64,000 bases of DNA from Eledone cirrhosa (lineage: Eukaryota), in assembly GCA_964016885.1 (NCBI GenBank), contig CAXHJY010000491.1, positions 62,001-126,000 on the forward strand, written 5' to 3'. This document shows, in pieces, positions 27,251-48,565 of this stretch. How positions within the stretch are numbered: the stretch's first letter is position 1; the number at the start of each line of letters is the position of its first letter. The notes below the pieces were generated by a model. The model was not told the origin of the DNA, made no database searches, and worked only from the letters and a program-made list of their open reading frames with translations. Both the position numbers and the translations under genes were made by a program.

Positions 27251-27580
27251 TGAGTATATGTTGGTTGTATACCAACACCTCAGTATGCAGCCTGGAGCAC
27301 TCGACGAAGTGCGCAGGTTGGTTTGGTTAGTCCGGAGTAATGTAAAATAAAGTAAAATGAAAAGTAAAATGTTTAAAATTTAGCTTCGTTTATTACTGCT
27401 ATATATATTTCGGAGTATTGACAAAATTATACACCTCAACAACATGTGTACTTGTCTATACCACACTAATTCGGACTGCCTGAAGAGGTCACAGCCAAAG
27501 ATGGCTGTCACCGAAATATATATAGCAGTAATAAACGAAGCTAAATTTTAAACATTTGACTTTTTATTTTACTTTATTTT
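27251..27580. mobile_element. ~330-bp non-coding fold-back cassette with hammerhead, between (TA)n tracts 27179-27250 and 27580-27789
   Basis: 27344-27413 is the reverse complement of 27511-27580; additional hairpins at 27251-27282 and 27288-27320. Confidence 0.8.
27475..27529 (+). ncRNA. Type I hammerhead ribozyme motif
   Basis: ACTGC CTGAAGA GGTCACAGCCA-AAGA-TGGCTGTCACC GAAA TATATA TA GCAGT; stem I ACTGC/GCAGT; palindromic stem III ATATATAT. Confidence 0.9.
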
Positions 27581-27930
27581 ATATATATATATATATATAT
27601 ATATATATATATATATTACTATATATATATATATATATATATATATATATATATATATATATATATATATATATATATATATATATATATATATATATAT
27701 ATATATATATATATATATATATATATATATATATATATATATATATATATATATATATATATATATATATATATATATATATATATATATTGTTATGCTT
27801 TGGGAGGGCCATGTTGCCAATAAGAAACACACGTACCATTTGCTTTCACTCCAATTTATTATAAATTTAAGAATTTATAAATTTCTGGTTGGTTGGTTGG
27901 ATCCACAACCAGACGATTGTTCATATATTC

Positions 27931-27971
27931 TCAAAGTTCTTTCATCACACATTCTCTGACCTCTTCAGTGA
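27931..27971 (-). ncRNA. Minimal hammerhead motif in the PLE 3' UTR (left arm)
   Basis: TCA CTGAAGA GGTCAGAGAATGTGTGAT GAAA GAAC TT TGA; stem I only 3 bp. Confidence 0.65.
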
Positions 27972-29116
27972 CTGGGGATTCTTTTCTTTGTTTTTTAGCC
28001 TCTCCTTTGTTCTGTCCTACGCCATCTTATTTTTGTGTAGTGTTGTGTTCTTATTTTGCGCATGTGTTACATCCGGCTGTCTGTGTGTGTTTATATTTGT
28101 TTATTTATTTGTTTATTTACATGTTACTGGTTGCTTGTTTGTTCTATGTGTGTGTGTGTTTTCATTTTGTCCTTAATTGTAAGTTGTGATGTTGCTATTC
28201 CATTCATGTTTTCTATTTAATTTTGGTTGGAGTTCATTTATGATTATTGCCTCTGTGATTTGTCTAAACATTGCGTCTTTTCTGTGTGTAGATTCTATTT
28301 TTATTTCTATGTTCTCTAATTTACCCTTATGTTCTAGTTTAGCATGTTGATGGAGTACAGATGATTCTTTACTATCTTGAAGCTCTAGCCAGTGTTCATT
28401 TATCCGTTCTCCTACACTATGAGCTGTCTCATCTATGTACACTATATTCTTATCTCTACATTGTCCTTCAGTACATCTTATGCTATATACTAGATTTCTA
28501 GTTTTACAGTTAAGATGGAGGCTTAGTTTACAGATTATACATTTCTTATCTATACAGGAAGGTCTTTGAAAAGTGTATGTATTGCTAATATGTGTTTTTA
28601 TGGAGGTACCTGGTCTTTCTACTATCTTAATATTGAATTTATATTTATCTAGCGCCCTTCTAAATTTGTAAGCTAATTCACCTCTAGGGGTTGTATTGAT
28701 GAACATTACACTCTGGTATTTATTGCTATCATACCATGAGTTTATTCTATTAACCTTATTCCTTGTTCTTTCTATTCTATTCCAAAATTTGCTCCTGTAC
28801 AAGGCGCAGGTCCCATTTGTATCATTATTTACCATTTTTTTCCATTTGGTTCTGGCTCCTCTATATACTCTGATTTCATCTATCTGATTGTAACCAGATA
28901 ACTGCATACGGTGGATGAAGTGTTGTATGTGTCTCTTTAGTTCTTTGGTGGGGGGGGGGGGTTGCACATGCGGGACCCGTTTCTCATCACCCGTACCAAA
29001 TCCGCAATCAGTATGTTGATTTTGGTGTGGTTCGAAACAGGTGAGTTCCGGTGGATCAGATATTTGGAAGTCATGGGTTTGGCATAATGGGAATGGAGGA
29101 TTTGTTTTTTGTTATT

Positions 29117-29300
29117 AATTGTTTCTACTTTAGGCACAAGGCCAGCAATTACCCAGTGCATTACTGGTACTTTATTTTATCGACCCCTTAATGATGAAAG
29201 GCAAAGTCAACCTCGGCGGGATTTGAACTCAGATCGTAAAGGGACGTAACTATGCTGGAAAGCATGGCGTCCGAACCCCTACCGATACTGCTAATCCACA
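29117..29300 (-). mobile_element. SINE inserted in the RT of the left PLE arm
   Basis: Same family as 24485; interrupts ELWLET|INNKKQILHSHYAKP. Confidence 0.9.
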
Positions 29301-30368
29301 TGGTTTCTAACCAGAGCTCTGTGTCTAGTACAGGTAATGGATGGTTGGGGTGTTTGCTTGGGTAGTCTATAGTAACTCTAATACTCTGGTGGATGGAGTT
29401 AGCTATTTTCTGGATGCTTTCCATGGTCTAATTCCTGACTGTTCTCTAGTGGGGGTGTTTTTACTACGATGTTTATATCATCAACGTAGCGGGAGTACAT
29501 TATCAGGGTTAACAGGTTGCTGTCTTCTGATTGTTCTTCAAGTTTAAGTTTAAGTCCCACCATACCATCAATAGGTTAGCTATGTCACCTGCAATGCTAA
29601 CACCAATGGCTGCTCCCTCCTCTTGGGCATATGTTTTTCCATTAAATTTGAACATATGTCCCTTAAGGGTTAATTTTATACTGGCCCCCACCGCATATGC
29701 AATCATTTTCTTTAGTTCATCGTGGTTTTCCGGGTCCGTATGGGTCTGGTTTCATCTATCTGTGTCGGTTTTCTTGGCCATTGAGGTAATGGTAGGTGGT
29801 CTGCCTGTTGCTGGTCTTGTAGGGCATAGGTTGCTAAGGTCATATGTATCTAGTTAATCATTACTATAGGTAAGTTTATGTACGAGTCTCAGCTCACTGG
29901 TATCAATCCCACGGAATTCAACATTGCTCTCACTGATCATTTCTACGCATGTCTCCACAGCAAAATCCACGTCAATCTATGGATATAGGGACACAACATC
30001 CATACTACCTATTATGCAGTTTGTTAGGTCCCTAGATCGGTTACTTAAGCTGATTCTGCTGAGGAGGTCCTCCGTGCTGTCGTATATATCTGGGGACATT
30101 TCAATGATGGGGCGTATGGTCAGGGAGAGGAAGTAGGAAAGTCTGTAGTTACTAGCAATGTTAGCTTCACACACTGGCTGTGTTGGTGGTCCTGGAGAGG
30201 GTCACTGCTCATTTTGTGGTCTTTTCGAAGCCCATACAACGCGGGCACGTCATTGTTCCAGGCCTGGAAGTTGTTGGCAGTCCTTTTGTTGGACTGCATT
30301 ATGTTTGTCCACATCACCATATGGGCATTGAGGGTTTTCTCCCTATCCTCATGCTCTTGTGGTGTTAC

Positions 30369-47662: not shown

Positions 47663-47836
47663 TATATATATATATATATATATATATATATATATATATA
47701 TATATGCAAAAGTTCTATTTAAAGTTGTTGGGATACAACAAGTAAATATTTTTATAACTTATATAAAGCACTCGACGAATTTTTGGAGTAGATATACGAT
47801 ATTAATAAATGGAAACTATATTTATAAAACCATATT

Positions 47837-47901
47837 TATTTCATTATACATATTTCAGGGATACCACATTAAATTATGGTATGCCTTCATCAGACAAAAT
47901 A
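47837..47901 (-). ncRNA. Type I hammerhead ribozyme motif
   Basis: TATTTTGT CTGATGA AGG C ATACCA..TGGTAT C CCT GAAA TATGTA TA ATGAAATA. Confidence 0.88.
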
Positions 47902-48080
47902 CAATATATAACAGTTTTACAAATAGGTTTGACGTACCCTTTTAAAATACAACCATTACTTTTGGAATACTTTTAAAATTACTTTTAAAATACAACCATT
48001 ACTATCCAGACAGCCTCCAAAAGTAATGGTTGTATTTTAAAAGGGTACGTCAAACCTATTTGTAAAACTGTTATATATTG

Positions 48081-48145
48081 TATTTTGTCTTATGAAGGCA
48101 TACCATAATTTAATGTGGTATCCCTGAAATATGTATAATGAAATA
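48081..48145 (+). ncRNA. Hammerhead copy with core mutation CTTATGA (G5 to U), likely inactive
   Basis: Reverse complement of 47837-47901 except for the core base. Confidence 0.75.
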
Positions 48146-48224
48146 AATATGGTTTTATAAATATAGTTTCCATTTATTAATATCGTATATATATATATAT
48201 ATATATATATATATATATATATAT

Positions 48225-48565
48225 GCAGAGGTTATATTTAATTTGTTGGGATTCAACAAGCTTAAACATTTTTATAACTGATATAAAGCACTCAACAGTT
48301 AGTGGAGTAAATATACAATATATTAACAAATGGAAACTATATTTATAAACCCATATTTATTATATAAAACCATATCCAGGAAGCTCCAACCGTTAAGGTT
48401 GTCTTTTTTCAGGGTATGTCAATATTTAATTACAAAACTAATCTGTATTGTATTTTATCTGGTGAAAGCGCACCATAATCTGCCGTGGTGGCCCTTGAAA
48501 TATGTATAATAAAATAAATCTGGTTTTATAAATATAGTTTCCATTTGTTAATATATTGTGTGTAT
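48225..48565. mobile_element. Third cassette of the same family (minus-strand tail 48225-48360, plus-strand body 48373-48560) with hammerhead variant CTGGTGA at 48451-48516
   Basis: TATTTTAT CTGGTGA AAG C GCACCA..TGGTGGC C CTT GAAA TATGTA TA ATAAAATA; flanked by (TA)n. Confidence 0.8.

Follow-up and report, generated by a model that had tools for sequence, protein, structure and literature searches.

A 64,000-nucleotide stretch of the Eledone cirrhosa genome (NCBI GenBank assembly GCA_964016885.1, contig CAXHJY010000491.1, positions 62,001 to 126,000; hereafter the window, G000:C518:62001-126000 in our numbering, within a 3.0-Gb genome) holds five repeat families (i to v) that are the 5'-truncated 3' ends of coding Hydra-clade Penelope-like elements (PLEs). 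Each family carries a conserved bulged stem-loop, which stands twice in the leader of longer copies, next to two fixed ends at which insertions stop. Considering position and covariation together, we regard it as probable (roughly 0.6) that this predicted RNA stem-loop, one per end, binds the element's own reverse transcriptase (RT) and positions the start of copying a few bases 5' of itself. An earlier note, made from the letters of the window, had proposed a conserved structured PLE signal acting in cis and, from the sequence, a candidate RT recognition or initiation element; it remains a good candidate, and its pairing is kept through compensatory changes.

A bulged stem-loop beside two fixed ends

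The conserved unit is a bulged stem-loop composed of RCTC, a variable inner stem, a 2-nt U(U/C/A) bulge, GAGY, and then RCT. It was confirmed at all six window sites of the five families (i, ii, ii', iii, iv, and v) where the earlier note had placed it, each of these being the copy referred to below as copy 1. In family i (27339-27296, minus strand; stem-loop at 27296..27338), it comprises ACTC, a 6-bp inner stem with one G-T pair, a TC bulge, and GAGT GCT. The family ii site (47790-47767, minus; stem-loop at 47767..47789) has one inner-stem mismatch, the family majority being CAAA/TTTG, and the related family ii' site (48309-48287, minus; 48287..48308) has a weak inner stem. Family iii (44552-44524, minus; 44524..44551) shows a CAGT/ACTG inner stem with a TA bulge, family iv (46587-46614, plus; 46588..46614) a TACT/AGTA inner stem with a TT bulge, and family v (36983..37031, plus, ending at 37031) the GCTC/GAGC variant with a TC bulge and CCT.

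Genome-wide, the pattern TACTC N4-30 GAGTRCT N40-70 (TA)6 gave 24,622 forward matches, whereas the reversed control, on the side that can be compared, gave 114; the reverse count (132,079) and the forward control (681) were excluded from the comparison, both being inflated because the pattern slides along the TA run. Unselected DNA totaling 400 kb (40 evenly spaced 10-kb stretches) showed no enrichment of the outer stem plus VCT by itself (40 versus 31 in reversed sequence and 33-45 in 10 shuffles); enrichment emerged only when an inner stem of 3 bp or more, set behind a 2-nt bulge, was required (12 versus 2 reversed and 0-7 in shuffles). A scan for the motif over the collected loci returned 224 instances in 32 clusters, some of them by chance. 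Scanning the window with Rfam 15 up to E 1 yielded 60 matches, all below the gathering score and located at simple or inverted repeats, with none at the six motif sites. The second, distal hairpin of the earlier note was not borne out as a conserved element: local inverted repeats exist, but the spacers of 23 families fold no better than shuffled sequences (median z -0.3, with 3 of 23 below -1.5), and the two-hairpin model was rejected.

In copies with an upstream pseudo-long terminal repeat (pLTR), the leader runs in the order hammerhead, copy 1, copy 2, and ATG with the open reading frame (ORF). Copy 2 stands 59-99 nt 3' of copy 1 (78-99 nt in the five families and 59-83 nt in other hosts), some 13-75 nt before the ATG. 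It was seen first in families iii and v and was then predicted just past the TA junction for families ii, i, and iv, for which 65, 29, and 313 genome-wide matches were obtained, respectively, mostly followed by an ORF, with none in the controls.

A TA or CT tract followed 276 of the 374 alignment ends in the five families; of these microsatellite junctions, 275 fell within 14 nt 5' of copy 1 (end T1) or copy 2 (end T2). The modal offsets in families i to v were -4, -2, -7, -5, and -2 at T1 and -7, -3, -6, -3, and -3 at T2, the family iv T2 values including a 6-nt correction because an inner ACTC had served as the stem start. Moreover, a TA occurred within -9 to -1 of the stem in 55 of 56 instances, with peaks at -8 and -6, compared with 23-33 of 56 in three upstream windows. 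Back-to-back inverted pairs were T1/T2 in 77 of 78 cases and T2/T2 in none; because the five-family loci were retrieved with queries containing the T2 end, this side of each pair was preselected and T1:T2 proportions do not represent the genome. The earlier note had taken the visible motif as the mark of the adjacent TA junction, which is T2. Copy 1, however, marks the other, shorter end (T1), and T2 is marked instead by copy 2, which lies beyond the junction and is missing from these insertions, being visible only in tandem or full-length copies. As a separate observation, many family i T2 ends (loci L119-L125) enter (CT)n instead of (TA)n; some family i leaders read AAATCT at T2, so template sequence may bias the microsatellite used.

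All window insertions agree with the T1/T2 scheme, the T1 arm having no copy and the T2 arm having copy 1. The family i long arm (27243..27408, minus) consists of the hammerhead 3' half and then the tail, and ends at T2, 3 nt before the full-length copy 2 position; its inverted short arm (27494..27581, plus, with the hammerhead core starting at 27480) ends at T1, 4 nt before copy 1. In family ii, the long arm (47700..47947, minus; hammerhead core at 47893) ends at T2 (-3) and the inverted short arm (48035..48190, plus) at T1 (-2), and the family ii' insertion has a long arm at 48361-48219, ending at T2, and an inverted arm at 48446-48554. The family iii long arm (44466..44792, minus; hammerhead core at 44658) and inverted short arm (45836..46069, plus; core at 45970) end at T2 and T1, as do the family iv long arm (46519-46662, plus; -3) and inverted short arm (46451..46515, minus; -5). 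The family v long arm (36713-37069, plus) ends at T2 at 37069 and is partnered by an inverted short arm (34657..34924, minus) ending at T1 (-2); the fold-back point of this insertion holds a Hydra-type endonuclease C-terminal remnant on both strands (35696..35946; tblastn E 5e-11 and 7e-6). A second family v insertion (34324..34630) has a T2 arm at 34514-34324 (minus), with a mutated motif, and a T1 arm at 34524-34630 (plus), and a third family v stub (37123..37214, minus) is tail only, with a T2 end. More inverted-arm insertions between TA runs occur at 22805-23540, 46941-47300, and 46202-46429, the last of these, a relative of family ii, being cut 3' of the motif.

Covariation in other hosts

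To follow the stem-loop beyond this genome, we searched metagenome contigs with an alignment of 40 Hydra-type proteins (39 of 79 protein matches plus the L003 piece) and used the best 79 of the 494 related loci, which fall into 58 ORF clusters; the L003 protein alone as query had given no matches. On the sense strand of these 79 loci, a bulge of 2 gave 47 anchor matches with 3 bp or more of inner stem; the opposite strand gave 2, and no other bulge size gave more than 2. Chosen by the anchors only, the core lay within 260 nt of the hammerhead for 41 of 53 hammerheads and 28 of 33 ORF clusters, the reversed control giving 0. A reverse-complement control (23 matches) was left unused, since it is confounded by GAGCACTC being nearly palindromic.

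Pairing was counted by script on anchor-defined positions, after four cores without an RCTC partner had been dropped. Among 46 non-redundant instances from other hosts, the first inner pair was kept in 45 (C-G 29, T-A 15, and T-G 1) at a bulge of 2 but in only 0, 1, 5, and 13 at bulges of 0, 1, 3, and 4, respectively, and the bulge was always TT, TC, or TA. Of the inner-stem cells, 108 of 138 were paired, compared with a permutation mean of 72.6 and maximum of 90. On an RT tree built by a quick method from 33 rows, all our own or metagenome sequences with no named reference RT, the first inner pair swapped 5 times compensatorily and the second 11 times among Watson-Crick states. The earlier note had asked whether covariation exists and whether autonomous PLEs carry the motif; with covariation holding and the motif present in full-length copies, its proposal survived on both points.

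The stem-loop is also present, without remark, in the published Hydra consensus sequences of coral, sea cucumber, and, as a variant, copepod (File S7 of PMC8557442). The portion of that source considered here places the motif at the 3' end of the consensus in Hydra-2_Amil and Hydra-2_Ajap and twice at the 5' start in Hydra-1_Ajap (sea cucumber), with the variant in Hydra-1_Crog. Six core 9-mers gave 7 matches in the supplement consulted, 4 of them in the Hydra file, where line breaks can hide matches (PMC8557442).

An alternative is that the motif is an expression signal, such as an internal promoter or a translation signal of the downstream ORF, or inherited baggage, with the ends set by something else nearby. 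The short distance from copy 2 to the ATG would suit such a role, as would the internal promoters contained in pLTRs (PMC8557442, in part), and this genome's five families group in a single clade on the quick RT tree. Flanks and loops, however, are unalignable while the pairing persists through repeated compensatory changes; both ends follow their own copy within a few nucleotides although the spacing of the copies varies over 78-99 nt, and the distance to the ATG is looser than the distance to the end. We consider this alternative quite improbable.

Coding elements, hammerheads, and neighboring sequences

The earlier note had regarded the repeats as non-coding RNAs mobilized in trans. A protein-less RNA of this kind was rejected for all five families: in longer genomic copies, every family is joined in sense orientation to Hydra-type ORFs, and family ii copies extend 1.6 kb upstream into a Hydra-type endonuclease and RT. 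The ORF is a single frame with the RT followed by a C-terminal GIY-YIG-type endonuclease, open over 717 aa in family iv (arrays L341 and L342), 687 aa in family ii (L346), and 670 aa in family v (L215), and known only as broken frames in families i and iii. RLRWR or RIRWR and DKT were found in families iv, ii, and v, whose open frames also carry YRDD, and DKT in family iii. The CxCX5C linker and the cysteine motifs of the C terminus are present in families iv and v, with CxxC and CxH around the conserved E and N (CNCPDRSIC linker, CNLC, and CKH in L341, with the same pattern in L214). Each frame has one CxxC and one CxH and, judged from these patterns only, no CCHH. A Pfam search with the L003 Hydra piece gave no match, and the named relatives of the window PLE proteins come from cephalopods.

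The assignment rests on the Hydra-clade traits of RWK, DKT in place of DKG, the CxCX5C linker, and the cysteine motifs (PMC8557442), the proteins resembling published Hydra proteins at the level of motifs. As far as the account of Craig et al. (2021) (PMC8557442) was drawn upon, the present families have in common with Hydra-clade PLEs the C-terminal endonuclease, RWK/RWR, DKT, the CxCX5C linker, (TA)n targeting, a pLTR hammerhead (canonical in families i to iii), a partner that is inverted and 5'-truncated, and a tail confined to one end. They differ from it in having tails of about 80-100 nt rather than 30-40 nt, units of 3.5-3.9 kb in families ii and iv, and non-canonical hammerhead cores in families iv and v.

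The hammerhead core is canonical in families i, ii, and iii. The placement of the motif downstream of the ribozyme in the earlier note thus stood for families ii and iii, where a canonical core lies upstream, and fell for family iv, in which the canonical CTGANGA core is missing even from full-length copies. The case is mixed for family i, whose motif-bearing arm has the 3' half only, the full core being on the inverted arm (27480, plus), and for family v, whose core is a CAGAAGA variant that is mutated further in the window copy. Family iv forms head-to-tail arrays of 3.53-3.54 kb (L341-L342; G000:C1:91472001-91482000 and C1:437199501-437209500) with open 717-aa frames, and since these lack the canonical core, the ribozyme may be dispensable for a Hydra family with recent activity.

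This absence also bears on a reading in which RNA processing sets the ends, a host nuclease, an element protein, or the RNA itself cutting 5' of the stem-loop, followed by target-primed reverse transcription from the T1 or T2 3' end. Such processing would produce identical ends and would likewise lose the motif, and family iv may need a route other than the hammerhead. The conserved core is, however, about 16 nt with no Rfam match, and a sister clade initiates internally on unprocessed RNA (PMC11167929, in the part used here). On balance this route is improbable, and internal starts placed by the stem-loop remain the preferred explanation.

Non-LTR retrozymes are likewise short hammerhead-bearing PLE derivatives, and the preprint on them describes no such motif in its main text (10.64898/2026.07.22.740005). 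Their defining form is protein-less tandem units, each with a complete hammerhead, whereas the window copies are monomeric inverted pairs of coding-family ends. A retrozyme-like derivative was observed at L347 (G000:C2:356029001-356032000), a 299-bp tandem of the family iv leader with both stem-loops in each unit; it is the only short tandem found among these families and has no canonical hammerhead core.

The window is an AT-rich island of microsatellites and mobile elements with satellite on either side (1-21778 and 50766-64000; periods 29 and 64 nt), and the output of a repeat finder was mostly microsatellites. A non-Hydra PLE is present as two broken copies (30300-34280, plus, and 27790-30370, minus) with an RT, a CX4CxxC linker, and a GIY-YIG domain, and with hammerheads at 34087 and 27968. 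Its family has two fixed ends about 57 nt apart before (TA)n, and a short GAATCTTG 3' of both ends in L339 might be that family's own signal. A third PLE type is represented at 25146-25751 (minus) by an endonuclease remnant (GIY-YIG, E 1.4e-4), behind which come a hammerhead-like core that has mutated and a TA run. A common SINE-like (short interspersed nuclear element-like) repeat has copies at 23866-23944, 24482-24625, 29100-29300, 32810-32990, and 47440-47630, two of them inserted at the identical place in both non-Hydra PLE copies. In addition, L206 (16-1256) holds a 310-bp tandem of another hammerhead-like unit in five copies.

Proposed copying starts and their significance

Because the stem-loop adjoins each of two fixed ends in all five families, it is likely a start-site signal for the enzyme. 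The ends are read as RT starts because the Poseidon PLE PAc starts in vitro at two internal sites that delimit its tail and requires RNA 3' of them; in that system both strands are cut and extended, and the protein is predicted to form a dimer (Frangieh et al., 2024, PMC11167929, in the part used here). If each stem-loop sets one of two internal RT starts, the PLE tail would be the interval between them. In the proposed sequence of events, the stem-loop would form in the RNA, the endonuclease would nick both strands of a (TA)n tract, and the two nicked ends would each anneal to the UA immediately 5' of one of the stem-loops and prime cDNA at that place; both primings might occur on a single RNA held by a dimer of the protein. 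The stem-loop setting a given start would stay uncopied, so the T2 arm would have copy 1 in its extra tail and the T1 arm none. A more specific form is programmed twin priming, in which one RNA with two stem-loops would load each subunit of an RT-endonuclease dimer by one of them, the nicked (TA)n strands priming on UA; we put this forward tentatively, at somewhat less than even odds.

Several observations weigh against this reading. Set aside for want of a following microsatellite were 98 ends, of which 25 were T1, 21 were T2, 16 read through, and 36 lay elsewhere; one insertion (L310/L311) ends just 3' of copy 2, and the family iii T1 ends are scattered from -11 to +1. In other hosts, 12 of 53 hammerheads and 5 of 33 clusters are without the core, Hydra-1_Obim shows no motif and Hydra-1_Amil a doubtful one among the consensus sequences consulted (PMC8557442), and many second copies have a single inner pair. 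The outer pair changes just twice on the RT tree, and CTC/GAG yields no covariation because it is invariant and served as the search anchor. The motif was found in 0 of 11 hammerhead-bearing loci of the window's non-Hydra PLE family (14 fetched, query locus excluded), which has two ends all the same, so it is not a general PLE signal. On a single-RNA model, moreover, the T2 cDNA must pass protein-bound copy 1. Finally, internal G-T versus A-C wobbles stand at 7:2 (p = 0.18), and the sense (35/46) and antisense (34/46) strands fold equally well.

This last point leaves room for a hairpin in single-stranded DNA (ssDNA), with the GIY-YIG endonuclease recognizing the cDNA or displaced strand, cutting at a fixed offset, and trimming the intermediate to T1 or T2, since neither strand test is significant and the 3' part of the motif, GAGYRCTC, is near-palindromic. 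In the portions of the literature at hand, Ssn GIY-YIG nucleases cleave ssDNA at hairpin-forming sites (PMC11893778), the tail has been ascribed to endonuclease-mediated resolution (PMC8557442), and tail-dependent endonuclease recognition in Drosophila virilis Penelope is cited (PMC11167929). Nevertheless, the wobble pairs lean, not significantly, to the sense strand, the TA conserved at the ends fits the target in the way expected of a priming site, and the Poseidon tail ends were mapped in vitro to RT starts, not cuts (PMC11167929). Cutting of ssDNA is thus unlikely, if the best placed of the rivals, and a start signal in RNA is preferred.

With Poseidon PAc, these elements would have in common two starts that delimit the tail, a need for RNA 3' of them, and cutting and extension of both strands (PMC11167929). 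According to the part of that study used, the PAc starts are at an AC-rich stem-loop within the ORF, the binding motif being bracketed only to the first 172 nt, whereas the stem-loop of the present families is a defined one that covaries, occurs in duplicate within the non-coding leader (one copy for each end), and is accompanied by TA microhomology to the target. The Hydra account in PMC8557442, in the parts covered here, describes no conserved cis-motif after the hammerhead, although its consensus files contain one. A literature search, with most subscription papers, Repbase reports, and supplementary figures outside its reach, found no description of the motif. The elements and their tail were already known; the clade-wide cis-element, with a testable rule for both ends, is undescribed as far as this search reached.

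In hepadnaviruses, epsilon is a small bulged stem-loop that binds the virus's own RT and fixes the start of synthesis, with priming on protein at the bulge; in stringent long and short interspersed nuclear elements (LINEs and SINEs), a 3' stem-loop bound by their RT fixes the start, and LINE stem-loops are copied into the insertion. Unlike these, to which it is likened by description with no sequence relation seen, the signal here would sit 3' of the start and remain uncopied. An in vitro system has been called for to learn how PLEs choose internal starts (PMC8557442, in part), and a defined, duplicated, covarying cis-element with a one-to-one positional tie to both ends makes this choice directly testable and bears on why the tail of PLE insertions is restricted to one end. 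For annotation, the motif is a practical marker of Hydra-clade elements, which have tens of thousands of ends in this genome. Since PLE RTs are the sister group of telomerase RTs, an RNA structure by which a template is brought into register with a repeat primer is relevant to how telomerase arose. Twin priming, if true, would account together for the PLE tail, for the asymmetry of the inverted insertions, and for the targeting of microsatellites. It would also supply a telomerase-related RT, one whose template pairs with a repeat primer, with a portable start signal comprising about 16 fixed bases.

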